Part shown: one piece after another, positions 19,870 through 33,372 of the stretch
Position numbering within the stretch: the stretch's first letter is position 1
How the letters are laid out: every line of letters begins with the position of its first letter
Sequence record: LC494302.1
DNA length: 64,000 bases
Reading direction: 5' to 3' (one strand)
From: Escherichia phage SP27
Position numbers and translations under genes: made by a program
Notes under the pieces: model-generated
What the model saw: only the letters and a program-made list of their open reading frames with translations
Database searches by the model: none
Told to the model about the DNA's origin: nothing

Positions 19870-19872
19870 GTA

Positions 19873-20331: not shown

Positions 20332-20375
20332 AGACTCTAACTTGTAGTACTAACTCAACTAATAGGATGTATACC

Positions 20376-20771: not shown

Positions 20772-20793
20772 TAACTTGCAGTACTAACAACAC

Positions 20794-20818
20794 GGCGGGA
20801 TCAGTTCCCGCCTTTTTT
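20794..20818 (+). terminator. intrinsic terminator
   Basis: GGCGGGA 20794-20800 / TCCCGCC 20806-20812 then TTTTTT. Confidence 0.85.
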
Positions 20819-20832
20819 ATAGGACAAACAAA

Positions 20833-21087: not shown

Positions 21088-21112
21088 CAGTACTCAAATG
21101 TTTTAGTACTAT
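21084..21112 (+). promoter_or_regulatory. sigma70-like promoter
   Basis: TTGACA 21084-21089 /17/ TACTAT 21107-21112. Confidence 0.6.
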
Positions 21113-21140
21113 ATGTACATACCAACACGGGGGAAACAAA

Positions 21141-21383
21141 ATGATTACTTTAGAAAAACGTATCAAAGAAACTACATCGCTGGTGGAACTGTTAACAGTA
21201 CTCAAATGTAAAACAACACCATTCAGCACGCCGGACTTTATTAATATGGTTGATGTTAATGGTCGCTATCGTATCACGGTCGAACAAGGAGCGGCGAAAG
21301 TATTCAGTACTAAAAACACGAAGGAAGTGATCCACGCCGTTAATGTTAAAAAAGTAGTTGCCATTGATAGTAAAGTACTGTAA
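21141..21383 (+). CDS. hypothetical protein
   Basis: 80 aa from MITLEKRIKETTS; SD GGGGGAA; track start 21084 coincides with the -35 element. Confidence 0.75.
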   Translation: MITLEKRIKETTSLVELLTVLKCKTTPFSTPDFINMVDVNGRYRITVEQGAAKVFSTKNTKEVIHAVNVKKVVAIDSKVL

Positions 21384-21414
21384 GATAGTTACATTAACTC
21401 AAGGAGAACATGCA

Positions 21415-21999
21415 ATGCGTAATTATACTAAATTCATCCGTACACTGTCAGAAATGGAAACCAACAAAGAGATCCTTTCAGCTTGTCGGTTAGCTGGCCT
21501 GGAGATCATCGGTGCTGGTTCTTCCCGTATAGTTTTCGCTTTAAATGATCGGTTAGTGATTAAGGTCGCGAATTGTGATGCGGGTGTAGAACAAAATGAA
21601 ACTGAATGTAAGGTATGGAATTTTTTAGACTATGACCGCCCTCAGTTGAAACAGTACTTTGCAAAGGTGCATATGCATTTATGCGATCCTGATAATATGT
21701 TTATCGTTATGGATCGGTTGAGTACTGCAAGTAAAGGCAGTGTGAAGCACGTAAACGCGTGCAATGAATTAAAGTACAATATTAAACGTAATGCAATCGA
21801 CCGCCAGCACCGCTTTGCTGATGCACTACAACACGTTGATGATACATTATCAACACTAACGATAAGAGATATCAGAAAACAGAATATCGGCCAGGATCGT
21901 AATGGACTTATTAAAGTACTTGATTACGGTTTAACCAGCAATATCTGGAATCAGTACTATAAAAAGCGTGATGTGGCAGCAAGTAAGGTAACACGATAA
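21415..21999 (+). CDS. protein-kinase-like protein (putative Ser/Thr kinase fold)
   Basis: 194 aa from MRNYTKF; SD AAGGAG; IGAGSSRIVF (Gly loop), VIKVA (Lys), DIRKQNIG (D-x-K-x-x-N catalytic loop), VLDYG (DFG-like). Confidence 0.65.
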   Translation: MRNYTKFIRTLSEMETNKEILSACRLAGLEIIGAGSSRIVFALNDRLVIKVANCDAGVEQNETECKVWNFLDYDRPQLKQYFAKVHMHLCDPDNMFIVMDRLSTASKGSVKHVNACNELKYNIKRNAIDRQHRFADALQHVDDTLSTLTIRDIRKQNIGQDRNGLIKVLDYGLTSNIWNQYYKKRDVAASKVTR

Positions 22000-22007
22000 A
22001 AAAGATT

Positions 22008-22100
22008 AAAAAAGGGATTGACTCCGGTCAGTCCCTTTGCTATTATATATCCATTGAGAGATAACTCACTGACCCATAGGGTGCGGAAGTGTATCTATTA
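22008..22100 (+). ncRNA. short promoter-driven noncoding unit (unit j), promoter embedded in terminator-like hairpin
   Basis: GGGATTGAC-TCCG-GTCAGTCCC; TTGACT 22018-22023 /17/ TATTAT 22041-22046; ...GAGATAACTCACTGACCCATAGGGTGCGGAAGTGTATCTATTA. Confidence 0.45.
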
Positions 22101-22140
22101 TATAAGTATTCAGTACTGAAAACTATTTTTAAAAAAGTAC

Positions 22141-22200
22141 TTGCATTGTACTTAGAATCAAGTATAATGTTTTATATCGAGAGGGGAAATGGTTCTCCCT
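22141..22200 (+). promoter_or_regulatory. early promoter + degenerate 5' hairpin
   Basis: TTGCAT 22141-22146 /16/ TATAAT 22163-22168; AGGGGAAA...TTCTCCCT 22182-22200 with one mismatch. Confidence 0.65.
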
Positions 22201-22219
22201 GGCAATAAGGAATAAAATC

Positions 22220-22441
22220 ATGACTACAATGACTTGCATTTACGCTTCCAATCTACTGAATGATGCGGCCTTTAATGTTGATTCAGAATATCAATGTTAT
22301 CGGGATGAAAATAAAAAAGTTTTTGTAGTTGATAATAATGGTTTCCATATTGAATTACAATCCGGCTTCACTGGTGTTGATGGTAAATCAGTATGGGGCG
22401 TACAGGATGATAAAGGCACATATCATTTTAAACGTAATTAA
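22220..22441 (+). CDS. hypothetical protein
   Basis: 73 aa; SD AAGGAA; MTTMTCIYASNLL. Confidence 0.8.
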   Translation: MTTMTCIYASNLLNDAAFNVDSEYQCYRDENKKVFVVDNNGFHIELQSGFTGVDGKSVWGVQDDKGTYHFKRN

Positions 22442-22444
22442 GTA

Positions 22445-22503
22445 TTGACAAAGTATACCAGTACTGTATAATAGTTTACATCAAGGGGAGAATAGTTCTC
22501 CCC
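22445..22503 (+). promoter_or_regulatory. early promoter + 5' hairpin cassette
   Basis: TTGACA 22445-22450 /16/ TATAAT 22467-22472; hairpin GGGGAGAA-TAG-TTCTCCCC 22485-22503. Confidence 0.75.
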
Positions 22504-22525
22504 GATACTAAAAGGAAACAAAATT

Positions 22526-22798
22526 ATGTCCAGCTACTCCGCTACTATGATCATTAAAGATATGAACGGTAATCCTACTTCTGCTGGTGGATCATTTGGA
22601 AACATTAATTTAGATGGTCGGTTATCCATGCAATCAGCAATCGATGCAGCGAAAGAAGTTTTTAAGAATGAATGTACTGTTAGTAAGCTGGATTATATGG
22701 GATTTGCTATCGAAAAAACTAATCGTTTTGTGGACTACAAAAAACCACTGATGATTGATACTAACCTGAAAGCAAACGAAGTGGAGTACTTATTATGA
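22526..22798 (+). CDS. hypothetical protein
   Basis: 90 aa; SD AAAGGAA; MSSYSATMIIKDMNG. Confidence 0.8.
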   Translation: MSSYSATMIIKDMNGNPTSAGGSFGNINLDGRLSMQSAIDAAKEVFKNECTVSKLDYMGFAIEKTNRFVDYKKPLMIDTNLKANEVEYLL

Positions 22799-22986
22799 CA
22801 GTTGAAGAAGTTAAAAAAGTACTGGCAGTACTACGCTATCATAATCATTGTAAGGTGAAGAATGATCCTGATTATCTTGATTCATCCCTGGAAGAGGATA
22901 CACTACAAGCAATAAGCCATATGCAAACATTAGCAAAGCGTATGACCGAAAAGAATAGACCGGACTATATCGGAAATAAAATTTAA
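22795..22986 (+). CDS. hypothetical protein
   Basis: 63 aa; ATGA overlap; MTVEEVKKVLAVL. Confidence 0.75.
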   Translation: MTVEEVKKVLAVLRYHNHCKVKNDPDYLDSSLEEDTLQAISHMQTLAKRMTEKNRPDYIGNKI

Positions 22987-22993
22987 AAAGTAC

Positions 22994-23054
22994 TTGCATT
23001 GTAGTTAGATTAACGTATAATGTTTTACATAGAGCGGGGGAATAGTTCTCCCGC
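22994..23054 (+). promoter_or_regulatory. early promoter + 5' hairpin cassette
   Basis: TTGCAT 22994-22999 /16/ TATAAT 23016-23021; hairpin GCGGGGGAA-TAG-TTCTCCCGC 23034-23054 (one G-U). Confidence 0.75.
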
Positions 23055-23072
23055 CAGTCCAGGAGATACACC

Positions 23073-23336
23073 ATGAACACTATCGAAATCACTATCAATG
23101 CACACGTATACGACAACGTAATCATGCAAACTACTATGACCGCTAATGATACCAGTACTTTGCGGAATACTGTTATTAGTGCCGTATGTGCCGCTATCGG
23201 TGATGTCGCCCTGGAAAATGCAGAACATATCAACAACGGTTTCACTATGTGCAAGCGTGATAACGCAAAACATATCATCGTAGAAGGTTACGGCGGTGTA
23301 GAATTTAATGTTTATATGAAAAAAGTACTTGCATAA
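23073..23336 (+). CDS. hypothetical protein
   Basis: 87 aa; SD CAGGAG; MNTIEITINAHVYDN; 3' end overlaps next promoter. Confidence 0.8.
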   Translation: MNTIEITINAHVYDNVIMQTTMTANDTSTLRNTVISAVCAAIGDVALENAEHINNGFTMCKRDNAKHIIVEGYGGVEFNVYMKKVLA

Positions 23337-23385
23337 TAACTAAAACAAAGTATAATGTTTTGCATAGGGGGAGATATCCTCCCCC
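23329..23385 (+). promoter_or_regulatory. early promoter + 5' hairpin cassette
   Basis: TTGCAT 23329-23334 /16/ TATAAT 23351-23356; hairpin GGGGGAG...CTCCCCC 23367-23385. Confidence 0.7.
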
Positions 23386-23403
23386 ACTAAAAGGAGTAAT
23401 AAA

Positions 23404-23628
23404 ATGGCTAACTTTGATGAACTGATGCGGGAAGTAGCTAACCTGGCAGAAGAGAAGAAATCATTCGATTCTATCTATAACACCGCTCATCGTGATTCAG
23501 TACTGGCATGTACTCAGGATCAAAAAGATGAACTAATCGCCACCTATCATGAAGCATGGAAGTACTACCGACAATGGGAGAAAGAAGAAAGAGAGTCTAC
23601 CATTGACGGCCTCAACAATCTAATCTAA
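23404..23628 (+). CDS. hypothetical protein
   Basis: 74 aa; SD AAGGAG; MANFDELMREVANL. Confidence 0.85.
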   Translation: MANFDELMREVANLAEEKKSFDSIYNTAHRDSVLACTQDQKDELIATYHEAWKYYRQWEKEERESTIDGLNNLI

Positions 23629-23647
23629 AAGTTTTATTTCAGTACTA

Positions 23648-23676
23648 TTGACATAGCTTGATAGTACTGATGTAAT
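23648..23676 (+). promoter_or_regulatory. type-B promoter flanked by AGTACT inverted repeat
   Basis: CAGTACTA-TTGACA 23648-23653 /17/ TGTAAT 23671-23676. Confidence 0.6.
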
Positions 23677-23704
23677 AACTTTACTAACTACAAGGGGAAA
23701 CATA

Positions 23705-23962
23705 ATGGAACAGTTCACACAATATCGGGTAAATCCTCAAGCTATGGCCTACGTAGAAGACCATAAAACATTACCAGTACTAACACCAATTAAAGGCCAT
23801 ATCTATCGTGCAATGTCATGGAATACCGCCCAGGATGGATATACTACCGCTGGCGTGGGTATGTATTGCGGGAATGGTGAATGGTTTGATCCAAATAATC
23901 CGGTAGCCATTGACAGTACTGAAAAAATGAAATGGGCCGACTACATCGAAGATATTTCATAA
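23705..23962 (+). CDS. hypothetical protein
   Basis: 85 aa; SD AAGGGGAA; MEQFTQYRVNPQ. Confidence 0.8.
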   Translation: MEQFTQYRVNPQAMAYVEDHKTLPVLTPIKGHIYRAMSWNTAQDGYTTAGVGMYCGNGEWFDPNNPVAIDSTEKMKWADYIEDIS

Positions 23963-23968
23963 AACTAT

Positions 23969-24029
23969 TTGACAGTACTAACCAGTAATGTATAATGTTT
24001 TACATAGAGCGGGGGAATAGTTCTCCCGC
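23969..24029 (+). promoter_or_regulatory. early promoter + 5' hairpin cassette
   Basis: TTGACA 23969-23974 /16/ TATAAT 23991-23996; hairpin GCGGGGGAA-TAG-TTCTCCCGC 24009-24029. Confidence 0.75.
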
Positions 24030-24051
24030 CAATAGTTTGGAGTAAAACATT

Positions 24052-24252
24052 ATGTCTATCGCTATCGCCCTGGTTGAAGTACTGAAAGAAGCTAAAGCCA
24101 ACCAGATCGACGTAAAGATCCAGGAACTACAAAACGGCGTAATCGGCTGTACTTGTACCGCTGGTGGAGCGGCAGACTATCGAGAACACGAATCACTCGA
24201 ATCACTGGTTCGGTATCTTACCATGATCGTTGATGATTGGAGAATCATCTAA
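24052..24252 (+). CDS. hypothetical protein
   Basis: 66 aa; SD TGGAG; MSIAIALVEVLKEAK. Confidence 0.8.
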   Translation: MSIAIALVEVLKEAKANQIDVKIQELQNGVIGCTCTAGGAADYREHESLESLVRYLTMIVDDWRII

Positions 24253-24264
24253 CAAAAAAGAATA

Positions 24265-24352
24265 AAAAAGGGATTGACTCCGGTCAGTCCCTTTGCTATT
24301 ATATACGCATAGACAAAAACTAGCCCACAGGGTGCATAGGTGTATCTAAAAT
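24265..24352 (+). ncRNA. short promoter-driven noncoding unit (unit k), promoter embedded in terminator-like hairpin
   Basis: GGGATTGAC-TCCG-GTCAGTCCC; TTGACT 24275-24280 /16/ TATTAT 24297-24302; CATAGACAAAAACTAGCCCACAGGGTGCATAGGTGTATCTAAA. Confidence 0.45.
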
Positions 24353-24414
24353 ATATGGTTAATAACGGTGAGTAACTATCTGCTGGTGGAGTGAAAACTA
24401 TTAATAAAAAAGTA

Positions 24415-24443
24415 TTGACAAAGTATATCAGTACTGCGATAAT
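24415..24443 (+). promoter_or_regulatory. sigma70-like promoter
   Basis: TTGACA 24415-24420 /17/ GATAAT 24438-24443; leader differs from cassette type. Confidence 0.65.
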
Positions 24444-24496
24444 GTATCTCGTAGGGCGGCAATGGTGCGACGGCCCACAAAGTTAGGAGATTCAAA

Positions 24497-24829
24497 ATGA
24501 GTACTTCAATCGCTATCGTTAAAGCTTTCATCCGTACCAATGTTTCATCTGTATTCATCGACGGTATGGATCGGGAAGTAGAATACTCAATCATTATCGC
24601 ACAGACTGCAAACGGTGCTCGGTATATCCTCAATGATAGTGAAGCAAATCACTACTACTTCACTAAAGCTACTGGCTTTAAACGCATCGATGCCGATGTA
24701 GTATACGCTAAGATGAATAAGCTGGTAGACAAGATTAACGCTAAAGGCACTATTGATTTACAGTACTGGACCGAAACCGATCCAGAATATGGATCTCACC
24801 GCTACCTGAATCCAGGTATTAAAATGTAA
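24497..24829 (+). CDS. hypothetical protein
   Basis: 110 aa; SD TAGGAG; MSTSIAIVKAFIRT. Confidence 0.85.
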   Translation: MSTSIAIVKAFIRTNVSSVFIDGMDREVEYSIIIAQTANGARYILNDSEANHYYFTKATGFKRIDADVVYAKMNKLVDKINAKGTIDLQYWTETDPEYGSHRYLNPGIKM

Positions 24830-25598: not shown

Positions 25599-25626
25599 TG
25601 CGTAAAGGGATCTAGTACTGATTCAG

Positions 25627-25692
25627 AAAAAAGTCAAGGCGTTTTTAAAATTATGCGTTAAAAAAATGCATAGGTAATCCCTTGACTTTTTT
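25627..25692 (+). terminator. long-loop hairpin with flanking A and T tracts (possible bidirectional terminator)
   Basis: AAAAAAGTCAAGG 25627-25639 is the perfect complement of CCTTGACTTTTTT 25680-25692. Confidence 0.5.
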
Positions 25693-25789
25693 GAAATAAA
25701 AGGGATTGGACTATGGCAAAATGCGTAGGGGGCTAAAGGGCGGGTAACCTTAGCGACTTCGATAAAGGGGTATTACGAATAAAATGTTA

Positions 25790-25817
25790 TTGATTTTTTA
25801 TACGAATCGTATATTAT
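25790..25817 (+). promoter_or_regulatory. sigma70-like promoter of Fam-B array
   Basis: TTGATT 25790-25795 /16/ TATTAT 25812-25817; SD GGAG 25839-25842; ATG 25848. Confidence 0.55.
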
Positions 25818-25847
25818 AGGATTGATATTATTTTTAATGGAGTCCCT

Positions 25848-26045
25848 ATGCGTATTTTAACTAAAGAACAGCACCACGAAAGACTTATCAATAACATGGC
25901 TATGATAATGTATAAGTCCCATGACCGTGGTATTGCCTATAAGCGTGAATTAATTATGGCACTATTCATTGGAACTAACTTTCAGGAAAGGTATGTCAAC
26001 GATTGGATTTGGTATTTAATTGAAGATATAACGAGTAAACTATGA
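25848..26045 (+). CDS. Fam-B protein
   Basis: 65 aa; FIGTNFQERYVNDWIWYLIEDITSKL. Confidence 0.85.
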   Translation: MRILTKEQHHERLINNMAMIMYKSHDRGIAYKRELIMALFIGTNFQERYVNDWIWYLIEDITSKL

Positions 26046-26242
26046 AAATGCGTATTTTAAATAAAGAAGAATATCAATCACTGTTACGTAAAAACTTCAC
26101 AAAGATTTATAATACAGACACACACGTAGAACGAATGGAGTTATACCTTTTGATTACTTTGGGAACTAACTATCAGGAAAGATGGGTGATTCAATATATG
26201 GATACATTGAAAAATAAAATATTGTCCACGAGGAAACAATGA
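26042..26242 (+). CDS. Fam-B protein
   Basis: 66 aa; ATGA overlap; LGTNYQERWVIQYMDTLKNKI. Confidence 0.85.
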   Translation: MKMRILNKEEYQSLLRKNFTKIYNTDTHVERMELYLLITLGTNYQERWVIQYMDTLKNKILSTRKQ

Positions 26243-26448
26243 AAACTATAACACGAACCCAATCATACGGTCTTATCTTGAAATACATGGACTTAATGGT
26301 GGATATCAGCAAAGACCTTCCTAAAACTGAAATTGAAGTTGCAAGAGCAGAGATCCGCATGTTGGCTGTACTGAACACAAACCATCAGGAAGATTATGTT
26401 GAAGAATGGATTCGATTTTTAATTCAAGATATAAAGAGTAAATTATGA
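26239..26448 (+). CDS. Fam-B protein
   Basis: 69 aa; ATGA overlap; LNTNHQEDYVEEWIRFLIQDIKSKL. Confidence 0.85.
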   Translation: MKTITRTQSYGLILKYMDLMVDISKDLPKTEIEVARAEIRMLAVLNTNHQEDYVEEWIRFLIQDIKSKL

Positions 26449-26657
26449 TTTTTTTAACACCAGAAGAATATAAGAAACGTTTCAATTCCGCACAGGGTGA
26501 AATCTTACTTATATACCTTTCAAATGCAGACCTTAACTTATCAAGGGTATTAGAAAAAGATTTACTTATGGGTGCATTCCTTGATACAGACTTTCAGGTG
26601 TATTATGTAGGGGAATACTTAATTGCACTCCAGAATTACATTAAGAGTAAACTATGA
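26445..26657 (+). CDS. Fam-B protein
   Basis: 70 aa; ATGA overlap; LDTDFQVYYVGEYLIALQNYIKSKL. Confidence 0.85.
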   Translation: MIFLTPEEYKKRFNSAQGEILLIYLSNADLNLSRVLEKDLLMGAFLDTDFQVYYVGEYLIALQNYIKSKL

Positions 26658-26866
26658 ATAGCATTAACTCAAATCTATATACCGAACGCGTCGCGGCCAG
26701 ACAACTTGAAATTCTCATAGTATATGAAGAGACTGATGATTTAAACTTAGCATTAGTATTGGAAAATGATATACTATTGGGTGCATTCCTCGGCACAGAC
26801 TATCAGGAGCACTTCTTGAATGAGTATATAATTGCACTCCAGAAATACATTAAGAGCAAACTATGA
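26654..26866 (+). CDS. Fam-B protein
   Basis: 70 aa; ATGA overlap; LGTDYQEHFLNEYIIALQKYIKSKL. Confidence 0.85.
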   Translation: MNSINSNLYTERVAARQLEILIVYEETDDLNLALVLENDILLGAFLGTDYQEHFLNEYIIALQKYIKSKL

Positions 26867-27081
26867 AACATTTAAGTAATTACGAGAAGAATAAAATTAT
26901 CGTTGCTGCAATAAACAAATATTTTACACTTCCTCACACAGAAGGTTTATGTGTAAGGGAACACAGGATAAACACCACCGATATACGCATGATGGCTGTA
27001 CTGGGGACGAACTTTCAGGAAGAGTATGTTGTTGCACACATAGTTGCCCTCACTGATCTAATAAGGGACAAATGTAAATGA
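26863..27081 (+). CDS. Fam-B protein
   Basis: 72 aa; ATGA overlap; LGTNFQEEYVVAHIVALTDLIRDKCK. Confidence 0.85.
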   Translation: MKHLSNYEKNKIIVAAINKYFTLPHTEGLCVREHRINTTDIRMMAVLGTNFQEEYVVAHIVALTDLIRDKCK

Positions 27082-27335
27082 AACACTTAACTGATGATGA
27101 ATTTGAAACTATAATTCGTAAACTAACCCCCATCACAAGGATAGTCTACGGTGACCCCAGCCTTACATGGAACCAAATGCGAGCTAAAGTTAATGAGCTA
27201 TGGTTGCTGTACTTTATGGGGACTCAATATCAAGATAAGTTTTGCACAGAATATATCGAACAATTAACGAATGTTATACAGGATAAACTAGATGATTATT
27301 TGCTCACAAAACATGAAGACTTTATCAGGAGTTGA
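27078..27335 (+). CDS. Fam-B protein (C-terminally extended)
   Basis: 85 aa; MGTQYQDKFCTEYIEQLTNVIQDKL plus a 14-aa tail beyond the usual stop position. Confidence 0.8.
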   Translation: MKHLTDDEFETIIRKLTPITRIVYGDPSLTWNQMRAKVNELWLLYFMGTQYQDKFCTEYIEQLTNVIQDKLDDYLLTKHEDFIRS

Positions 27336-27564
27336 GTATCAAACTGCCCTATTCTCTTTAATCCATGCCCTTAGAAAAAACAATGCCTTATATGGTGCAC
27401 CTGAAGTGGATGTTATCAACGGTGAACTTTATCTTATGAAATTCATTGGAACAAACTATCAAGATCTGTTCATTCAACGATACTTATCAGCATTAAGAAA
27501 CCAAATCCAATATAAAACCATCAAGGCCAAAAAAGAATGGAATAAACAATGCGACACAGACTAA
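27313..27564 (+). CDS. Fam-B protein
   Basis: Start MKTLSGVEY fits the family N-terminus (alternative ATG 27292); IGTNYQDLFIQRYLSALRNQI. Confidence 0.75.
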   Translation: MKTLSGVEYQTALFSLIHALRKNNALYGAPEVDVINGELYLMKFIGTNYQDLFIQRYLSALRNQIQYKTIKAKKEWNKQCDTD

Positions 27565-27797
27565 ATCACAAAATGTATTGTAAACTATTGCAGACATTGG
27601 CACAGAAACACTATGACACGGTATCTGGAATATTACCCTATGATATCATGCGTTTACTTCACTGTGAGGCCGAGATGCTTGTACTGATGACAGGCACTGA
27701 TAAAAACGCAATTGCCAAATCAATAGATATGTTCATCGAAGCACACTGCCAACACATGAGAACCGAAATCTGGAGGAAAGAGAATGATAATCCTTAA
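27549..27797 (+). CDS. Fam-B protein (divergent)
   Basis: 82 aa; MTGTDKNAIAKSIDMFIEAH. Confidence 0.75.
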   Translation: MRHRLNHKMYCKLLQTLAQKHYDTVSGILPYDIMRLLHCEAEMLVLMTGTDKNAIAKSIDMFIEAHCQHMRTEIWRKENDNP

Positions 27798-27999
27798 TGA
27801 GTATCAGTATCATTGGAGGTTACAAACTATCAAATCAAAAGTGTATAGTATTGTGTTAAACAAATCTATTGCACAAGAGGACAAATGTGTTATAATAGCT
27901 GAAATGAAGTTGGGTGTATTCGTAGGGACAAACTATCAAAACATCTACACTGACGTATTGTTAAGTGCCTTACGTAACAAGGTGGTATCCAAAATATGA
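27784..27999 (+). CDS. Fam-B protein
   Basis: 71 aa; VGTNYQNIYTDVLLSALRNKVVSKI. Confidence 0.85.
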   Translation: MIILNEYQYHWRLQTIKSKVYSIVLNKSIAQEDKCVIIAEMKLGVFVGTNYQNIYTDVLLSALRNKVVSKI

Positions 28000-28214
28000 G
28001 AAATTTACAAGGCTTTGAATACATCAGACTCCTGAAAACATGTGGAAGCAGAAGGAGAATGATATCAAGCGATAAGAGCATCCAAGCTAACCTTAAGCAC
28101 GCACTAGTAACTGAACTCTATGTAGGTGCACTCTTAGGCACAAACTATCAACAAATGTATGTAGATCTATGGATTGACGCTCTACAGAAAGAGGTTAAAA
28201 GTAAATGCAAATGA
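27996..28214 (+). CDS. Fam-B protein
   Basis: 72 aa; ATGA overlap; LGTNYQQMYVDLWIDALQKEVKSKCK. Confidence 0.85.
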   Translation: MRNLQGFEYIRLLKTCGSRRRMISSDKSIQANLKHALVTELYVGALLGTNYQQMYVDLWIDALQKEVKSKCK

Positions 28215-28423
28215 TTAATTTAAGTAAAGACGAATTTTATGTTATACTGGCGAAAACTTATCCAGCACGTAAGGCCGTTTATGATAGTCACATTATTGAA
28301 CCCTCAAAGAAGTTGATTTTAGTAAATGAGATAAAGATGCTTTCAGTCTTAGGAACAAACTATCAAGAGAATGCTGTACTGATGTTAATTGATGCCCTCC
28401 AGAGAGAGGTTAAACGTAAATGA
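28205..28423 (+). CDS. Fam-B protein
   Basis: 72 aa; MQMINLSKDEF; LGTNYQENAVLMLIDALQREVKRK. Confidence 0.85.
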   Translation: MQMINLSKDEFYVILAKTYPARKAVYDSHIIEPSKKLILVNEIKMLSVLGTNYQENAVLMLIDALQREVKRK

Positions 28424-28650
28424 AAATGATTAATTTAACTTACCATGAATATCAAAAACGTTTAAATGCATCCAGAGATATAAGGATTCAAATATTCAAT
28501 AACAAAAAATTGAAACCTGATACCAGAAGAATCAAAATCATAGAAGCCGTGTTGTGTAACTTCCTAGGGACTAACTATCAGGAAGGTAAGGTAGAAAACT
28601 ATCTTATAGAACTCATGAATAGTATTGAAAATAAATGTAAGGGTAATTAA
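28420..28650 (+). CDS. Fam-B protein
   Basis: 76 aa; ATGA overlap; LGTNYQEGKVENYLIELMNSIENKCKGN. Confidence 0.85.
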   Translation: MKMINLTYHEYQKRLNASRDIRIQIFNNKKLKPDTRRIKIIEAVLCNFLGTNYQEGKVENYLIELMNSIENKCKGN

Positions 28651-28654
28651 CATG
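28621..28654 (+). repeat. 34-nt direct repeat, copy 1 (3' end of 28420..28650 plus next start)
   Basis: AGTATTGAAAATAAATGTAAGGGTAATTAACATG, identical to 28890-28923. Confidence 0.9.
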
Positions 28655-28891
28655 AAAATGATTAAATTATCTCAAGCAAAATATAAAGAACGCCTGGTAA
28701 AAATTGCACCTGGACTTAATGAAATCCATCACGGAGAAGTCATTAAACACGGAAATAAGATGATTATGAAACTTGAGTTAAAGGTGGGTGCATTCATAGG
28801 AACAAACTATCAGGAGTATTATGTAGATGAATACATAATCGCACTTAAGAGATACATTGGAAGAAAACTATATCTACAAACTAAAGAATAG
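28652..28891 (+). CDS. Fam-B protein
   Basis: ATG 28652 (track start 28625 is TTG); MKMIKLSQAKY; IGTNYQEYYVDEYIIALKRYI. Confidence 0.8.
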   Translation: MKMIKLSQAKYKERLVKIAPGLNEIHHGEVIKHGNKMIMKLELKVGAFIGTNYQEYYVDEYIIALKRYIGRKLYLQTKE

Positions 28892-28923
28892 TATTGAAAA
28901 TAAATGTAAGGGTAATTAACATG
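28890..28923 (+). repeat. 34-nt direct repeat, copy 2 (noncoding remnant of a gene 3' end plus next start)
   Basis: Identical to 28621-28654 but here it lies downstream of a different stop codon. Confidence 0.9.
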
Positions 28924-29184
28924 CAAATGATCAATTTAAGTAAAGATGAATATACCGAGCGTATGACAAAAATTACGCACAAACGTAATACAATCTATCA
29001 CAACCCAGAAATTCAACACAGTAAGAAAATGATTATGATGCGTGAGTTAAAGATGGGTGTATTCTTAGGAACAAACTATCAAGATACAGAAGTAAATCGC
29101 TTAATCGCGGAGTTACTACTGGAAATCAGAGGTAAGCTGTACTTTCATCAAATGACCCAACCACTGAGGTGTACTGATCGATGA
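28921..29184 (+). CDS. Fam-B protein
   Basis: ATG 28921 (track start 28894 lies in the repeated remnant); MQMINLSKDEY; LGTNYQDTEVNRLIAELLLEI. Confidence 0.8.
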   Translation: MQMINLSKDEYTERMTKITHKRNTIYHNPEIQHSKKMIMMRELKMGVFLGTNYQDTEVNRLIAELLLEIRGKLYFHQMTQPLRCTDR

Positions 29185-29432
29185 ATGCGATGAATATTGT
29201 GAATAACATCAGATTAGCAGAAAGATTTGATAGAATTGGGGAAGCACTGAGAAGATACGATAAAGAATATGGTCATTTGAGCTTTTCTATAGAAAAGAGA
29301 TATGAACTTGAAGCAGAGTTTAAAATGCAGAGTCTCTTAGGCACACAGTATCAAAACCAATATATTCAAACTTGGATTGATTGTTTAATCCAGACAATTT
29401 ACGTAAGAAACATTAAATGCAAAATGAAATGA
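29181..29432 (+). CDS. Fam-B protein
   Basis: 83 aa; ATGA overlap; LGTQYQNQYIQTWIDCLIQTI. Confidence 0.85.
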   Translation: MNAMNIVNNIRLAERFDRIGEALRRYDKEYGHLSFSIEKRYELEAEFKMQSLLGTQYQNQYIQTWIDCLIQTIYVRNIKCKMK

Positions 29433-29671
29433 TATACTTAACACATGATGAGTTAACAGAAAGACTAGATAAATCCAAAAGACTTACAAATAAACTTCCT
29501 CACAACACAAATCAAACCCCAGCAGAAAGGAGTGCAGAAGTTTTATTCCAAAGATTACCATACCTTCTTGGAACTGATAGGCAAGAGTATCACATTGAAC
29601 GTATAATTAAATATCTCAAAATTACTATTAAGGAAAAAGTAAATGCAAATGAAATACTTAACAGACGATGA
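29417..29671 (+). CDS. Fam-B protein
   Basis: 84 aa (alternative ATG 29429); LGTDRQEYHIERIIKYLKITIKEK. Confidence 0.8.
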   Translation: MQNEMIYLTHDELTERLDKSKRLTNKLPHNTNQTPAERSAEVLFQRLPYLLGTDRQEYHIERIIKYLKITIKEKVNANEILNRR

Positions 29672-29894
29672 GTTAAAAGAACGACTAATTAAATCCAGAA
29701 AACTTACAAATCAACTTCCAAACGACACAAACAAGTCACATGCCGAAAGGAGTGCAGAAGTTTTATACATTCAACTCATGTACTTTCTTGGCACTGACAG
29801 ACAAGAGTATTACATTGAAAGTATGCTTCGATATCTTAAATTCTCTATAAAGGAAAAGATACATGCTCAAGAATTTAAAAATCCTAACAGTTAA
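29643..29894 (+). CDS. Fam-B protein (close paralog of 29417..29671)
   Basis: 83 aa; LTDDELKERL; LGTDRQEYYIESMLRYLKFSIKEK. Confidence 0.8.
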   Translation: MQMKYLTDDELKERLIKSRKLTNQLPNDTNKSHAERSAEVLYIQLMYFLGTDRQEYYIESMLRYLKFSIKEKIHAQEFKNPNS

Positions 29895-30105
29895 TGAATA
29901 TCATACGATTGTAATGAAAACTAATAGTGCAATTTCTAAAAAATCAAACCCCAAGTACATACTGGAACACACATTTGAAGAACGTCAATTAGCTTTAGTT
30001 GAAGCAAAACTTCTTGCACTCCTAGGGACTAACTATCAAGAAGAATACATCAGAAAACTAATATACCTTTTAACTAAACATATAAGAAAAAGAAAAAATG
30101 CATGA
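29863..30105 (+). CDS. Fam-B protein
   Basis: 80 aa; LGTNYQEEYIRKLIYLLTKHI. Confidence 0.85.
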   Translation: MLKNLKILTVNEYHTIVMKTNSAISKKSNPKYILEHTFEERQLALVEAKLLALLGTNYQEEYIRKLIYLLTKHIRKRKNA

Positions 30106-30332
30106 AACACTTGACAGATGATGAACATGGGCTTATAGTAATGGATGTAATCAACATCGAATACAAAAAGTTGATACGCTACCGTTGTTATGAAGATAAG
30201 CAACTCGTTCTAGCAGAACAGAAGTTGTTTCGACTCTTAAACACAAACTTCCAAGCACAATACGAAGAATCGTATATGTACCTTTTGGCGAGGAAAGCAA
30301 AAAGAGATTATGAAAATTTTAAGCAAAGGTGA
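30102..30332 (+). CDS. Fam-B protein
   Basis: 76 aa; ATGA overlap; LNTNFQAQYEESYMYLLARKA. Confidence 0.8.
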   Translation: MKHLTDDEHGLIVMDVINIEYKKLIRYRCYEDKQLVLAEQKLFRLLNTNFQAQYEESYMYLLARKAKRDYENFKQR

Positions 30333-30525
30333 TTCAGTAATATTACTTATAGAGAGTTCAAGTAAATTCTTAAACATAACACTGTCTGATATAGATGAAG
30401 ATGACAAAGAAGTACTGAGAGCAGATTTAAGAGTACTGTTACATATCGGAACAAACCTACAAGAAGAATATGTAGAATGCTACATCAATGAACTTAAAGA
30501 ATCAGTACTGAGAAAATGCAAATGA
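30310..30525 (+). CDS. Fam-B protein
   Basis: 71 aa; IGTNLQEEYVECYINELKESVLRKCK. Confidence 0.85.
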   Translation: MKILSKGDSVILLIESSSKFLNITLSDIDEDDKEVLRADLRVLLHIGTNLQEEYVECYINELKESVLRKCK

Positions 30526-30743
30526 AAATCATTACCGATGCAGAATACCTAACAATCATAAATGGACTGTTTTTGAAGCTCTTCGTCATTAACACATCAG
30601 ATATACCAGATATGGATAAAATTATTAAGAGAAATGAAGTCTATGTTCTAGCTACCCTTGGAACGAACTATCAAGAACACGACATTAAAGATTATATTAA
30701 TACACTTAAACGAGCGATTGAACTAAAATGCCAAAACCACTAG
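30516..30743 (+). CDS. Fam-B protein
   Basis: 75 aa; LGTNYQEHDIKDYINTLKRAIELKC. Confidence 0.85.
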   Translation: MQMKIITDAEYLTIINGLFLKLFVINTSDIPDMDKIIKRNEVYVLATLGTNYQEHDIKDYINTLKRAIELKCQNH

Positions 30744-30943
30744 GAACAGCAGAATACATTGAACTAATGGCATTACACTTCTCATCCTTTCAGAAACTTA
30801 GGCGAGAATCAAAGAATGATTTAGAATATACCATCAGAGGTTCCGATTTAAGAATGCTTCTCACCCTAGACACAGATTCCCAAGAGCGATTTGTCAATGA
30901 GCATATTAGAGCACTTTTAATGGAAATTCAAAGTAAACTATGA
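30728..30943 (+). CDS. Fam-B protein
   Basis: 71 aa; LDTDSQERFVNEHIRALLMEIQSKL. Confidence 0.85.
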   Translation: MPKPLGTAEYIELMALHFSSFQKLRRESKNDLEYTIRGSDLRMLLTLDTDSQERFVNEHIRALLMEIQSKL

Positions 30944-31155
30944 AGATAATATCAAACCAAGAGTACTTGGCACTATTCAGGAAGAATAATCACAAATATA
31001 TGGCACTTGATTCAAGAACTGATATAAGTGAACTTGAAAAAAATCTTTTGCGTTCAGAGATGATAGTACTGACACTCTTAGGAACACAGCATCAAGAGAG
31101 AACTGTTAATTCACACATAGGTATTCTTATACAGATTGTACTGGAAAAGATATGA
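30940..31155 (+). CDS. Fam-B protein
   Basis: 71 aa; ATGA overlap; LGTQHQERTVNSHIGILIQIV. Confidence 0.85.
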   Translation: MKIISNQEYLALFRKNNHKYMALDSRTDISELEKNLLRSEMIVLTLLGTQHQERTVNSHIGILIQIVLEKI

Positions 31156-31373
31156 GAATCATAACACAACAAGATATTCTTAAGTTCACAAGGGTTCATG
31201 CATCTGAATTTGATGCTATATTATCAAAAAGTTACAACAACCCTTATACAGAAGATGTACATTACAGTGAATTATGGATGTATATACTTTTAGGTACAAA
31301 TAAACAAGAGCAAGCAGTACAGAAGTATTTGACAGCTTTACGTGATGCTACTGCTAATGGAGTATGTGTTTAA
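31152..31373 (+). CDS. Fam-B protein
   Basis: 73 aa; ATGA overlap; LGTNKQEQAVQKYLTALRDA. Confidence 0.85.
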   Translation: MRIITQQDILKFTRVHASEFDAILSKSYNNPYTEDVHYSELWMYILLGTNKQEQAVQKYLTALRDATANGVCV

Positions 31374-31374
31374 T

Positions 31375-31617
31375 ATGAAAGTACTGACAGAACTAGAAAT
31401 GTATCATAGATTTAATAAGTACTATCATTTACTTAAGCCTATACAGAGGATTAAATGTCCATTTGAAGAGAAACAGGTTTTAATCTATGAGCACAAGTTC
31501 TTTGTATCATTAGGTACAGATCAACAAGAGTACTATTTGACGTTGTACTTGATTACATTAATAGATTTAATTCACTATAAAACAAAACAAGCTAATAAAG
31601 AGAAATATGAAAACTAA
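31375..31617 (+). CDS. Fam-B protein (last of contiguous array)
   Basis: ATG 31375 after TAAT junction (track start 31342 is GTG); MKVLTELEMY; LGTDQQEYYLTLYLITLIDLI. Confidence 0.8.
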   Translation: MKVLTELEMYHRFNKYYHLLKPIQRIKCPFEEKQVLIYEHKFFVSLGTDQQEYYLTLYLITLIDLIHYKTKQANKEKYEN

Positions 31618-31951
31618 TATACAACTCAAGGTATATAAATCATTTGAACATACATATATCAAAAGTAGTCTATGTAGAGATGTAATGGATTACAAGGGTA
31701 AGCCATTCACAATTACCTATGATTCTTATGTTAGTGATTTATATATATCATTTGTTAATTACGAAAATAAAATATACAAGCACGTTGATATTAAAGATTT
31801 AAGTACTTTATCTGAAGAGGAATACTTTCAGGAATCATTAGTATGGGATTTAGAGTTTCCTATGCCATTAGTACATAAGATGATAGTACTAATGAAAGAA
31901 TCTAAACAGGAGCCTAATGGTGATTATGAAGAACACACAGTTGAGTATTAA
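31607..31951 (+). CDS. Fam-C protein
   Basis: 114 aa; core LSEEEYFQESLVWD. Confidence 0.85.
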   Translation: MKTNIQLKVYKSFEHTYIKSSLCRDVMDYKGKPFTITYDSYVSDLYISFVNYENKIYKHVDIKDLSTLSEEEYFQESLVWDLEFPMPLVHKMIVLMKESKQEPNGDYEEHTVEY

Positions 31952-32321
31952 AAGTACTGATAATATTAAGAGTTATACAAGCTCAAGTACTGTGACAATC
32001 GAAGTGAATTCTCTTAATGCTGGTAATACAGTAGATAAGTTCTTTATTGCTCAAGGGTACAGGAAAGATATTCATCAATATTGTTCAGTATATGGGGAGT
32101 ACAATAGTACTGAAGATATAATTTATTGGTCAACACATCAAGATTATCTAACTAAAATTGGCGTTCCAGATGTTAGTACTTTATCTGAAGAAGAATACTT
32201 TCAGTACAGCTTAGTACATGATTTACATATACCTTTAGGGTTAATCAAGGGTATGCAGGAAGAGGTTCATAAGCTTAAATCCATGAGTAAAGGTACTTTC
32301 ATTAGAACAGTGCAATACTAG
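31917..32321 (+). CDS. Fam-C protein
   Basis: 134 aa (alternative ATG 31926); core LSEEEYFQYSLVHD. Confidence 0.8.
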   Translation: MVIMKNTQLSIKSTDNIKSYTSSSTVTIEVNSLNAGNTVDKFFIAQGYRKDIHQYCSVYGEYNSTEDIIYWSTHQDYLTKIGVPDVSTLSEEEYFQYSLVHDLHIPLGLIKGMQEEVHKLKSMSKGTFIRTVQY

Positions 32322-32322
32322 C

Positions 32323-32351
32323 TTGACAGTACTTTTCTTTAGTGCTATAGT
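32323..32351 (+). promoter_or_regulatory. sigma70-like promoter inside Fam-C array
   Basis: TTGACA 32323-32328 /17/ TATAGT 32346-32351. Confidence 0.7.
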
Positions 32352-32380
32352 ACCTGTACGTTAATCATAGGGTAGAAATT

Positions 32381-32626
32381 ATGTTAAATTTTTTAAATTT
32401 TCTTATCGTCTTGTGTATTGTTCTTGGGATTGCACCATTTGTATTGTATTTCATGGATTCAGATGAAATGCAGAAGATGAATTGCACAAGGACAGGACAG
32501 AGTAGAGTAGAGACGATTCTTATGCCTGTTACGGTTATTGTTAACAACATGCCCATTACGAACATGGTCCCTACCCTAACGACAACGTACCAGTACTCTT
32601 GTACAGACGGAGAGAGGTGGAGATGA
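32381..32626 (+). CDS. small membrane protein (N-terminal TM helix), not Fam-C
   Basis: 81 aa; MLNFLNFLIVLCIVLGIAPFVLYF hydrophobic N-terminus; own promoter. Confidence 0.75.
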   Translation: MLNFLNFLIVLCIVLGIAPFVLYFMDSDEMQKMNCTRTGQSRVETILMPVTVIVNNMPITNMVPTLTTTYQYSCTDGERWR

Positions 32627-32943
32627 AATTTAATATAGCAAAAACATCGAGTATATGTATTTTTGGTTATGCAGAAGAGTTAGGTGATATTGACATTCTT
32701 TTGTACAAAAAGGATGGTGTTATGCATTTCAAGTACCAGGATGAAGAGGCAGACAATTATCTTTTACCTAATTTAGTACAAATGCAGGAAGAGGAATTAT
32801 TCCAGTACAGCTTAATATACGACATTGTTATTTGCACGATGCCAGTACTAATTAGTATTCAAAAAGTGATGCTCGATATGTATGATAAGCTAATACAAGG
32901 TACATCAGGGAGAATCATTGAAATCGATATACAAGACAATTAA
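32623..32943 (+). CDS. Fam-C protein
   Basis: ATG 32623 in ATGA overlap, SD GAGGTGGAG (track start 32599 rejected); core QEEELFQYSLIYD. Confidence 0.8.
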   Translation: MKFNIAKTSSICIFGYAEELGDIDILLYKKDGVMHFKYQDEEADNYLLPNLVQMQEEELFQYSLIYDIVICTMPVLISIQKVMLDMYDKLIQGTSGRIIEIDIQDN

Positions 32944-33136
32944 TCAAGAATGGAAGACCCAAAAGTACAGGGAATTCAACAGGAATTTTACAAAAGATGC
33001 ATTGAATTTAAAAACAACAGAGTTTGATATGTTTATTTTTCTTGGAACACGTTCACAAGAACAATTTGTTCATTATTATATAAATTCGTTGCGAACGGAG
33101 ATAGTATGCAAAACACAGGGTATTATAAAAAGGTAA
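32918..33136 (+). CDS. Fam-B-like protein (stray copy, TTG start)
   Basis: 72 aa; no in-frame ATG near 5' end, TTG at 32918; FLGTRSQEQFVHYYINSLRTEI. Confidence 0.55.
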   Translation: MKSIYKTINQEWKTQKYREFNRNFTKDALNLKTTEFDMFIFLGTRSQEQFVHYYINSLRTEIVCKTQGIIKR

Positions 33137-33372
33137 ACCAATATTTGTACGCTACAAAGTACAGGGATTTTTGTTTAAAGGGTGGTGATGAAGATTTTTC
33201 TTTGCGATTATCAGAATTTAATCTGTTATTTTATCTTGGTACAAAAGAACAAGAAGAAATGGCACAGAAATTTATCAAGCACCTTTTACAAAAAATTAAT
33301 ATGCAAATTTTGATGCTTAAGTTACAGAATGAGATAAATGAATATGAATCCAGAAATAGTTCAGGATCTTAA
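33106..33372 (+). CDS. Fam-B-like protein (stray copy)
   Basis: 88 aa; SD ACGGAG; YLGTKEQEEMAQKFIKHLLQKI. Confidence 0.75.
   Translation: MQNTGYYKKVNQYLYATKYRDFCLKGGDEDFSLRLSEFNLLFYLGTKEQEEMAQKFIKHLLQKINMQILMLKLQNEINEYESRNSSGS

Follow-up and report, generated by a model that had tools for sequence, protein, structure and literature searches.

What does a phage gain from a long run of small, related genes laid end to end? The question is raised by Escherichia phage SP27, from which a stretch of 64,000 nucleotides (record LC494302.1, hereafter the window) was analyzed. The window is 92–97% identical to Asteriusvirus genomes, the PBECO4/121Q/G17 group of jumbo coliphages. According to its ORF list, 26 consecutive ORFs fill positions 25848–31617 exactly and form one gap-free, head-to-tail block with all 26 genes on the + strand. 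Their products are 65–96 residues long with longest-ORF starts and 65–90 residues long with starts that fit the family N-terminus. A profile HMM built from the 26 ORFs and searched against 733 stop-to-stop ORFs from the six frames of the window matched all 26 (E-values of ~4e-17 to 4e-27), as well as four ORFs outside the array (5e-6 to 5e-12), and it matched none of the others. The tandem family of ~70-codon paralogs described in an earlier, sequence-only reading (Fam-B) was thus recovered in full, and the four further copies noted there proved to be genuine. These scattered copies also lie on the + strand, at 32918–33136 (72 aa, LGTRSQE; HMM-matched stop-to-stop ORF 32894–33133), 33106–33372 (88 aa, LGTKEQE; 33028–33369), 45549–45770 (73 aa, a divergent copy with VGSNKQD; 45507–45767) and 45748–45939 (63 aa, LGTQYQE; 45733–45936).

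We found that members of the window match PHROG 4148 over their full length (E-values of 7e-9 to 9e-27), and that PHROG 28039 covers the C-terminal half of the family. PHROG 4148 is Fam-B itself, an automatic cluster of "unknown function" that carries no name, structure or mention of arrays, and at least 36 public genomes of Asteriusvirus list the genes under "hypothetical protein". Searches of Pfam, NCBIfam, PADLOC and PDB, and a comparison by fold, gave no match, and neither homology nor fold linked the family to any protein with known function. The earlier view that no such family had been described therefore stands for functionally described families, and falls for the sequences as such, which were already clustered and annotated. 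Fam-B occurs only in RaK2-like phages, with 95 clusters out of 1.84 billion representatives, and in some relatives the domain is fused to other domains, as in P0171 (269 aa), Muenster gp059 and L009:14699-15097. It is most likely a lineage-specific expansion, in RaK2-like jumbo phages, of one small (65–90 aa) soluble protein that forms a three-helix bundle.

The position of the array is informative. Records that begin at the physical genome end have their position 1 at ~4812–4822 of the window. The end of the direct terminal repeat (DTR) of vB_Ec-M-J (21,525) maps to ~25750, and the DTR end of fEgEco12 (20,993), which was confirmed by restriction digests (PMC13070987), falls at the same point. 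The left DTR of ~20.9 kb, placed by homology, thus occupies 4815–25750 (+ strand), outside the array. Fam-B begins ~100 bp past its right edge; this most informative piece of context had been overlooked. Similarly, in Klebsiella phage Muenster (Alcyoneusvirus) the DTR ends at 20030 and the next two genes are also Fam-B. The last gene of the DTR and the first of the array are separated by a conserved intergenic leader (25599–25847, + strand) with a 13-nt perfect inverted repeat (25627–25639 and 25680–25692) and, at the edge of the DTR, a G-rich block. Its mean identity across eight Asteriusviruses is 96%, which exceeds the conservation of the array. The leader contains a sigma-70-like promoter candidate at 25790–25817 (+ strand; TTGATT-16-TATTAT here, TTGACT-16-TATTAT or TAAAAT in relatives). 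It scores only 9/12 against the consensus in this window, and promoter-like sites are not enriched in the region (37 found versus 41.6 expected from shuffles), so that support for the candidate comes from its conservation: TTGAYT-16-TATTAT/TAAAAT is kept in 8 of 8 aligned phages. The site had been taken for the single recognizable promoter of the array; it is present and conserved, but may not be the only source of transcription, which could also come from internal promoters or by read-through from the terminal repeat. The gene layout changes at the DTR edge, where both promoter class and palindrome distribution shift. Between 5186 and 23996 there are 11 + strand promoters of the class TTGACA-N7-xxAGTACTG-TATAAT and beyond 25750 there are none; the candidate at 25790–25817 also does not carry their AGTACTG-TATAAT signature. 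Besides, the palindrome TCAGTACTGA occurs in 57 copies (2.4 expected), one of which is inside the array.

The array opens with B1 (25848–26045, 65 aa), which has a GGAG Shine-Dalgarno sequence at −6. Each of the next six genes starts in a 4-nt ATGA stop/start overlap: B2 (26042–26242, 66 aa), B3 (26239–26448, 69 aa), B4 (26445–26657, 70 aa), B5 (26654–26866, 70 aa; 51% identity with B4), B6 (26863–27081, 72 aa) and B7 (27078–27335, 85 aa). B8 (27292–27564, 90 aa; alternative start 27313) overlaps B7 by 44 nt, B9 (27549–27797, 82 aa) has six residues inserted after its GT motif and is the most divergent member of the array, and B10 (27784–27999, 71 aa) has a GGAGG Shine-Dalgarno sequence. The ATGA overlap recurs at B11 (27996–28214, 72 aa), B13 (28420–28650, 76 aa), B16 (29181–29432, 83 aa), B20 (30102–30332, 76 aa), B24 (30940–31155, 71 aa) and B25 (31152–31373, 73 aa), and is obtained at B12 (28205–28423, 72 aa), B17 (29417–29671, 84 aa) and B22 (30516–30743, 75 aa) if the second, in-frame ATG is used (28211, 29429 and 30522, respectively). 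B18 (29643–29894, 83 aa), whose 60% identity with B17 makes them the closest array pair, B19 (29863–30105, 80 aa), B21 (30310–30525, 71 aa) and B23 (30728–30943, 71 aa) complete the series together with three genes for which an ATG start was chosen within a longer ORF: B14 (28652–28891, 79 aa; longest ORF from TTG 28625), B15 (28921–29184, 87 aa; from TTG 28894; 51% identity with B14) and B26 (31375–31617, 80 aa; from GTG 31342), with which the contiguous array ends. Tight overlaps are thus frequent, and the statement that they occupy most junctions is borderline: 12 of 25 with the longest ORFs, 15 of 25 with the second ATGs. Since Shine-Dalgarno sequences are mostly weak or absent in a scan of these genes, the arrangement has the appearance expected of translational coupling. 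A DNA word said to recur at the junctions, RAGTAAACTATGA, was overstated: three exact and two one-mismatch copies account for 5 of 25 junctions, and their recurrence reflects the conserved C-terminal S-K-L codons followed by stop and start. Its supposed role in unequal crossing-over found no support, as the longest DNA stretch shared between units falls in the segment coding for LGTNYQ.

At the protein level, the motif previously reported for the family holds in an alignment of 29 sequences. In its GT core, T is found in 29/29, G in 25/29 and Q in 28/29, the residue before G is L or I in 26/29, and L65 (28/29) and K72 (23/29) follow. The N-terminus reads M (27/28), then L/I (27/29), T/S/N (24/28), E (17/28) and Y (15/28). 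An AlphaFold model of B14, computed from an alignment of Fam-B paralogues only, is a three-helix bundle (pLDDT 96.4, pTM 0.82) with helices at 8–27, 33–47 and 54–78, in agreement with the forecast of two to three helices. In this model the N-terminal motif and LGTNYQE come together at the same end of the bundle, with residues 4 and 51 bridged, and this pole bears the conserved polar residues T/S7, E10, E42, G50, T51, N52, Q54 and E55. The helix 1–2 region is the most variable part of the family (entropy above 3 bits over most of residues 16–37), and members range in pI from 4.4 to 9.9 and in net charge from −6 to +8.

On the reading that we favour, with about even confidence, the genes are transcribed together and coupled in translation, and their products are accessory proteins that stay out of the virion and bind factors of the host. 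Transcription of the array would yield one polycistronic mRNA or a few of them, at an early or delayed-early stage of infection. For the distantly related, RaK2-like phage PA5oct, the DTR genes are an early, highly transcribed set (PMC7318152), and by this analogy we infer early expression of the array. The proteins would be non-virion factors that share one scaffold and together supply a repertoire of small binders, with each paralogue recognizing a different host protein (for example a toxin, an effector of host defence or a target of takeover), and array content might thereby tune host range. The conserved pole may serve only to hold the fold, through a T-x-x-Q helix-capping box and Gly, or may be a dock for a common partner. 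If it is a dock, Fam-B could be a set of adaptors whose pole sits on one common machine (host protease, chaperone or phage enzyme, for instance) while the variable faces recruit substrates. The joining of both motifs at one predicted end, the polar residues there and the domain fusions in relatives are all in line with such adaptors, but a helix N-capping box (T-x-x-Q/E) with a Gly turn would in our judgment explain the polar residues equally well, and we regard this alternative as unlikely.

Charge bears on a second alternative, that these are small nucleic-acid-binding regulators (transcription factors or RNA-binding proteins) of phage or host expression and not binders of host proteins. Members are mostly basic, with a median pI of 8.7 and a positive net charge in 19 of 29, and the ~35-copy zinc ribbon expansion of phage G has been proposed to comprise transcription factors or DNA-binding proteins (PMC7824862); even so, we think a regulatory role of this kind distinctly unlikely. 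A place in the virion, as capsid inner body, internal proteins co-injected with DNA or accessories of hair-like fibres, seems very improbable, even though the components of the inner body and of the unusual fibres of Asteriusviruses are largely unassigned (PMC7247149). The products of the phAPEC6 array (gp467c–gp489c) are not among the 62 virion proteins detected by mass spectrometry (PMC7247149, Table 1), an absence that counts for little with proteins of ~8 kDa, as the method easily misses small proteins, although the detected set includes proteins of 4.7 and 12 kDa. Besides, the array adjoins the DTR amid small accessory genes, distant from structural modules, and its proteins vary more in charge and surface than would suit a stoichiometric structural role.

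Mean amino-acid identity among the copies is 25%, and neighbours are closer to each other than to other copies (0.305 versus 0.248, permutation p < 1e-4); as judged from sequence, the copies are old and derived by tandem duplication. Comparison of orthologues gave a pooled dN/dS of 0.29–0.37 (~0.35) for array genes, 0.17 for neighbouring DTR genes and 0.31 for downstream accessory genes, and replacements at paralogue-conserved columns were about half as frequent as elsewhere (7.1% versus 12.8%, p = 1.5e-17). Every copy is thus an intact gene under purifying selection. No arms-race signal was seen in these rates, as pairwise dN/dS was below 1 and no higher than in downstream accessory genes. 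Array length, when compared among eight related phages, varied from 23 to 29 genes, with whole-gene indels, mosaic identity and conserved order, and whole-gene units are gained, lost or exchanged between phages. Two metagenomic lineages also have collinear arrays, with 13 reciprocal best hits at 37–65% identity. The array might instead be an archive of silent cassettes that feed one expressed copy by gene conversion, as in antigenic variation, or neutral duplicated filler tolerated by a very large capsid. The many tandem copies, their varying number and the mosaicism would fit, but we give either version hardly any credence, because in all phages examined every copy has retained its start codon, an intact reading frame and coupling to the neighbouring gene, each is under purifying selection with fold-determining positions protected, order and orthology persist in other lineages, and inter-unit DNA identity (~60–80%, in short stretches only) is too low for efficient conversion.

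The proposed repertoire of host-factor binders may be compared with several known systems. Bacillus jumbo phage G has a lineage-specific expansion of ~35 zinc ribbons, described in a paper that does not mention Fam-B (Iyer et al. 2021, PMC7824862). There, as here, one small domain has multiplied to very many copies within a jumbo phage genome, but the phage lineages differ, and Fam-B is predicted to be a metal-free three-helix bundle. The T5 pre-early genes and the SPO1 host-takeover module are early or host-takeover gene sets of terminal repeats. Like these and the PA5oct set (PMC7318152), Fam-B groups small genes at the leading end of its genome, and in each case the genome has long direct terminal repeats. 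Unlike them, it lies just outside the repeat, does not have strong individual promoters and is a single paralogous family, whereas the other sets are mixtures of unrelated genes. In bacteria, polymorphic-toxin loci contain small helical immunity proteins encoded in tandem. Such arrays too run head to tail and encode diverged proteins that have a scaffold in common and are thought to have different binding partners, but neither sequence nor fold revealed a relationship, no toxin gene accompanies the Fam-B array, and Fam-B is phage-encoded. African swine fever virus (MGF110/360/505) and poxviruses (terminal host-range families) carry multigene families in their terminal variable regions. The viruses and proteins are unrelated to those studied here, a host-interaction role is demonstrated there and only proposed for Fam-B, and, whereas the poxvirus "accordion" yields recent copies that are nearly identical, those of Fam-B are old and diverged. 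Nevertheless, in each case paralogues stand in tandem on the same strand near a genome terminus or terminal repeat, copy number and content vary by isolate, and the members are, for Fam-B probably, non-structural accessory proteins.

Fam-B is a real, constrained, old and tandemly expanded family of small proteins that turns over by whole units among phages, and its genes form an array without gaps, in which stop/start overlaps are frequent, behind a conserved promoter and directly after the long direct terminal repeat (DTR). A mechanical ORF list gave 26 consecutive plus-strand ORFs at 25848–31617 (B1–B26), and a profile HMM made from them was searched against all 733 ORFs (stop to stop, six frames) of the window. 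We found that all 26 array ORFs were matched (E 4e-17 to 4e-27), together with four extra plus-strand ORFs at 32894–33133, 33028–33369, 45507–45767 and 45733–45936 (E 5e-6 to 5e-12), and no further match was present among the 733 ORFs. The array of 26 and the four scattered copies proposed by the sequence-only reading were exactly recovered in this search; its observation was confirmed, and its main reading proved largely right. Also, the motif as it had been worded was a fair summary of a 29-sequence alignment, in which the Thr of ‘GT’ was invariant and Q54, L65 and the initiator Met were each at least 90% conserved. Strong conservation was also seen at G50 (25 of 29 sequences), L/I49, E/D42, I/V69 and K72. 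The scattered copy at 45549 had VGSNKQD in place of LGTNYQE.

With longest-ORF starts, 4-nt ATGA overlaps were present at 12 of the 25 junctions, and at 15 when the in-frame second ATG of B12, B17 and B22 across the upstream stop was counted. The remaining junctions were overlaps of 14–44 nt or spacers of 1–29 nt, so the array has no real intergenic space. TGA served as stop codon in 18 of the 26 genes, and a recognizable Shine-Dalgarno core (at least 4 nt) was seen at only around half of the probable starts. This layout is as expected for coupling of translation by termination and reinitiation, from which we infer that neighboring genes are coupled. A recurring DNA word at the junctions had been claimed as well. 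It exists as RAGTAAACTATGA, which specifies the C-terminal Ser-Lys-Leu and then the stop and the next start, with three exact and two one-mismatch occurrences (0.6 expected by chance), and is confined to 5 of the 25 junctions. DNA identity between array units was just 60–80%, in short stretches only, and the DNA most widely shared among units was the segment coding for LGTNYQ, not the junction. Unequal crossing-over fed by the junction word, as had been suggested, thus has no support, and RAGTAAACTATGA was rejected as a recombination substrate, the longer shared DNA being the motif-coding segment. Separately, the same 27-nt segment (TTG AAA ATT AAT GTA AGA GTA ATT AAT) precedes B14 (28625–28651) and B15 (28894–28920) and lengthens the longest ORFs of both. 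It is left over from the duplication of a unit (226-nt repeat, 76% identical), and the array's only real spacer falls within it.

The window was 92–97% identical to genomes of Asteriusvirus, a genus of ~350-kb jumbo myoviruses that infect E. coli and Salmonella (including PBECO4, 121Q, G17, phAPEC6, Sharanji and fEgEco12). In every one of these genomes, the only annotation of the array consists of successive ‘hypothetical protein’ entries. For records beginning at the genome's physical terminus, position 1 mapped to window ~4812–4822, indicating that the source record was assembled in a circularly joined or permuted form, with the terminal repeat collapsed. The left physical terminus of the genome falls inside the window (1–4815 versus 4815 onward), and GC skew changes sign near 4000. 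In vB_Ec-M-J, the DTR is annotated at 1–21525 and the first Fam-B gene starts at 21624; the right edge of this DTR corresponds to window ~25750. The DTR of fEgEco12 is 20,993 bp long, as confirmed by restriction digests (PMC13070987), and its right edge also mapped to ~25750. These two edges place the start of the array ~100 bp beyond the right boundary of the left DTR.

Across eight phages, the 249-bp leader (25599–25847) was 96% identical, and it was more conserved than both the array and the flanking coding DNA. It contains TTGAYT-16-TATTAT/TAAAAT at 25790–25817, followed by GGAG and the first ATG. The −35 element in the window is TTGATT, and this promoter candidate, which matches the consensus at only 9 of 12 positions, is backed by conservation and not by score. 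The leader also carries a perfect 13-nt inverted repeat (25627–25639/25680–25692) and a G-rich block, GGGGGCTAAAGGGCGGGTAACC, which ends at ~25750, the DTR right edge by two independent determinations; this block may belong to the signal defining the repeat boundary. Neighboring genes within the DTR lie 60–250 bp apart, and 11 plus-strand TTGACA-N7-xxAGTACTG-TATAAT sites, with a near-consensus −35 and an extended −10, occur between 5186 and 23996. A scan of the window found no promoter of this class past 25750, array included, and the array looks like one long transcription unit under a different, weaker promoter. That the promoter is single, as had been claimed, was not established: consensus scans within the AT-rich array were at chance level, for which reason read-through from the DTR or internal promoters might possibly drive its transcription instead. 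Counts of both promoters and terminators inside the array were at or below chance and were left out of the evidence. The window holds 57 occurrences of the palindrome TCAGTACTGA (one mismatch allowed), where 2.4 are expected, and only one of them is in the array. The palindrome was densest in the terminal-repeat part (4700–24500, for example at 5186–5213, 19602–19629 and 22445–22472), where on the plus strand it makes up the spacer and extended −10 of the TTGACA-N7-xxAGTACTG-TATAAT promoters; its sites look like a promoter class dedicated to early expression, or like an operator embedded in such promoters. Four mutually similar minus-strand ORFs in the DTR (6702–6989, 10085–10264, 12708–12863 and 14466–14645) are probably a repeated DNA segment (e.g., intergenic or promoter regions) rather than genes.

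Selection was assessed by pooled pairwise Nei-Gojobori dN/dS between window genes and ungapped orthologues from seven phages. The array had values of 0.29–0.37; the same calculation yielded 0.17 on the last 13 genes of the DTR and 0.31 on 11 non-Fam-B genes downstream. Constraint on the array is about twice as relaxed as that on the DTR genes, and at this crude pooled pairwise level there was no sign of pervasive positive selection on it. Replacements between orthologues were roughly half as common at paralogue-conserved columns as elsewhere (7.1% versus 12.8%, Fisher p = 1.5e-17), so every Fam-B copy is maintained as a folded protein. Paralogues were 25% identical on average (range 13–60%). 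Adjacent copies were more similar than non-adjacent ones (identity 0.305 vs 0.248, permutation p < 1e-4), and the closest pairs (B4/B5, B14/B15 and B17/B18) were all neighbors. The size of the contiguous array varied among phages: 23 copies in 121Q, 25 in UE-S1, 26 in the window and vB_Ec-M-J, 27 in UB, and 29, the largest, in EC.P1, WPEC3 and G17. Gene order was kept, and whole units were present or absent (for example, B12, B14, B18 and B19), with extra units in relatives between B6/B7, B17/B18 and B21/B22. Allele swaps were also found, one position being 100% identical in one phage and 50–80% in another. Judged by these comparisons, the array is old, with unit-wise turnover and recombination between phages, and is not a recent amplification. 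Two models of array dynamics were rejected. A gene ‘accordion’, i.e., recent adaptive amplification, does not agree with a mean identity of 25% (maximum 60%) and DNA similarity of 60–80% in short stretches. Similarly, copies that are all intact, constrained and too unlike at the DNA level do not fit a cassette or gene-conversion system.

When 1.84 billion representative proteins were searched exhaustively with the profile, only 95 clusters were returned at E ≤ 1e-3, almost all of 52–96 aa. A word-indexed search found close relatives only, on ~350-kb contigs, and tblastn with the family consensus detected only 35 Asteriusvirus-type records; the members in Klebsiella phage lie beyond the reach of tblastn and were detected by HMM. 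Metagenomic lineages L008 and L009/L010 had arrays of 12–15 members that kept the core [LIF]-G-[TS]-x-x-Q. L008 and L009 were collinear, with 13 reciprocal best hits at 37–65% identity, and the region upstream of the L009 array showed ~75% resemblance to the DTR region of Klebsiella RaK2-like phages and Asteriusviruses. In Klebsiella phage Muenster (Alcyoneusvirus, DTR 1–20030), 12 members occur in small groups at 20.2–37.5 kb, and the first two genes after the DTR are Fam-B. For 25 of the 30 window copies the nearest relative was another window copy, which makes the large contiguous block an expansion at the Asteriusvirus level. Several members were fused to other domains. P0171 (269 aa; 14234–15043 in the EC.P1 contig, 13216–14025 in that of UB) has a C-terminal part of 170 residues that is a free-standing gene in Klebsiella phages RaK2 and K64-1, and three shorter fusions (115–133 aa) each carry a C-terminal extension of ~50 aa, such as Muenster gp059 (23870–24214) and the L009 gene at 14699–15097. 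The add-on domains of P0171, P0176, gp059 and L009:14699–15097 had no match in Pfam, PHROGs or PDB.

This part of the genome is generally prone to tandem expansion, and the window holds at least four further tandem paralogue families, all of unknown function: six genes of ~60 aa at 1027–2171; four genes at 2771–3966; the seven Fam-C genes (phrog_13866/15629, motif STLSEEEYFQ) at 31607–32943, 40326–41523 and 47088–49689; and seven phrog_9317 genes at 41533–43845 and 48852–50568. The DTR regions of related phages (3055–3666 and 16393–16641 in Muenster, 5375–5626 in L009) encode toxin-antitoxin-like proteins, which resemble the antitoxin YeeU, the toxin YafQ and ParE, and also a protein kinase. 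Such genes fit a host-takeover or anti-defence role of this genome end.

The family had been thought to match nothing described. This held for curated families and structures: nothing in Pfam fell below E 9e-4, with every match under the gathering score, NCBIfam and PADLOC gave single-member matches far below curated cut-offs (best E 0.0023 and 0.0015, respectively), and the best E value in a PDB profile search was 0.21, all of these being matches at chance level. It did not hold for PHROG 4148, which all 10 tested members matched (E 7e-9 to 9e-27), usually over profile positions 1–72 of 74; the C-terminal half also matched phrog_28039, and both entries are labelled ‘unknown function’. Fam-B is thus catalogued, not described. 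In the literature we found no published description of the family, no report on a host-range or immune-evasion role for it, and no Asteriusvirus or Alcyoneusvirus transcriptome. The CBB paper noted 22 paralogous ORFs in its supplement only (PMC5259590), the jumbo-phage survey of Iyer et al. highlighted a zinc-ribbon expansion of ~35 copies in phage G and does not include Fam-B (PMC7824862), and Fam-B is not a topic of the papers on Sharanji, UE-S1 and fEgEco12.

An AlphaFold2 model computed from the paralogue alignment had pLDDT 96.4 and pTM 0.82; in it, Fam-B is confidently predicted to be a three-helix bundle (helices 8–27, 33–47 and 54–78), in agreement with the two- to three-helix bundle anticipated from sequence. 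In the model, a one-residue bridge from residue 4 to residue 51 brings the N-terminal motif M-K-x-L-T-x-x-E-Y and LGTNYQE, which had been noticed as separate motifs, together at one pole. Helix 3 begins with G-T-x-x-Q/E, which would have the form of a helix N-capping box, and conserved hydrophobics follow an i, i+3/4, i+7 rhythm (58, 61/62, 65 and 69). Entropy exceeded 3 bits across most of residues 16–37, and members ranged in pI from 4.4 to 9.9 and in net charge from −6 to +8. Foldseek found no neighbor in PDB with E below 1, and only family members in BFVD.

Taken together, the array would be expressed polycistronically, early or delayed-early and with translational coupling, and its products would have a non-virion role. 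Its position, the conserved core against a variable surface, the spread of charge and the analogy with terminal multigene families of large eukaryotic DNA viruses suggest a repertoire of small binders that share one scaffold and target different host factors; homology lends no support to this function. In its full form the reading is tentative, and we consider it rather doubtful: as the first operon behind the DTR, the array would supply three-helix binders, each paralogue neutralizing or redirecting its own host target (a defence effector, a toxin or a protein subject to takeover), perhaps by handing it over to a common partner that is bound at the conserved pole, and gain, loss and exchange of units would set which strains can be infected. 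One alternative is that all members are adaptors to a common partner, for which the conserved pole would again be a candidate site. Another is that they are nucleic-acid-binding regulators; the predicted fold showed no similarity to known DNA-binding three-helix domains (helix-turn-helix etc.). A role as virion proteins appears less probable. Mass spectrometry of phAPEC6 virions identified 62 proteins, including ones of 4.7 and 12 kDa (PMC7247149 Table 1), and none of gp467c–gp489c, the phAPEC6 equivalent of the array, was among them; this is a weak negative, as the proteins are small, but is consistent with the non-virion assignment. Finally, an array of silent cassettes or filler is opposed by copies that are intact, constrained and too divergent in DNA.

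More than 80% of genes in RaK2-like jumbo phages have no assigned function, and Fam-B accounts for ~30 of ~600 genes in SP27. For this family, exact gene coordinates, a confident predicted fold and a conserved position at the DTR boundary are now supplied, as are evidence for constraint on every copy and for unit-wise turnover between phages. The interest of the array is moderate, and would be higher if the members are a binder repertoire. If they bind host factors, the array would amount to a compact, naturally occurring set of inhibitors of E. coli and Salmonella proteins and a candidate host-range determinant of phages in development for therapy (phAPEC6, fEgEco12, UE-S1 and JP4). If it is dispensable, it still records a route of jumbo-genome growth, old tandem duplication followed by divergence.

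Comparison with known systems places Fam-B among lineage-specific expansions. Unlike T5 and SPO1 pre-early or host-takeover modules, it lies outside the repeat (start at ~25848 versus the DTR edge at ~25750), and its genes have no individual strong early promoters, only one weaker promoter upstream. In contrast, it shares several features with the terminal multigene families of large DNA viruses: paralogues in tandem on one strand (26 contiguous and 4 nearby), copy number and content that differ between isolates (array size 23–29), and a location adjoining the terminal repeat, ~100 bp beyond the DTR edge in Asteriusvirus and, for two Fam-B genes, first after the DTR in Muenster. If the binder repertoire is real, Fam-B would correspond, in a prokaryotic virus, to the multigene families for host range at the genome ends of poxviruses and African swine fever virus. 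In either case, it is an uncharacterized example of accessory genes that expanded in tandem within one lineage, close to the terminus of a large viral genome.
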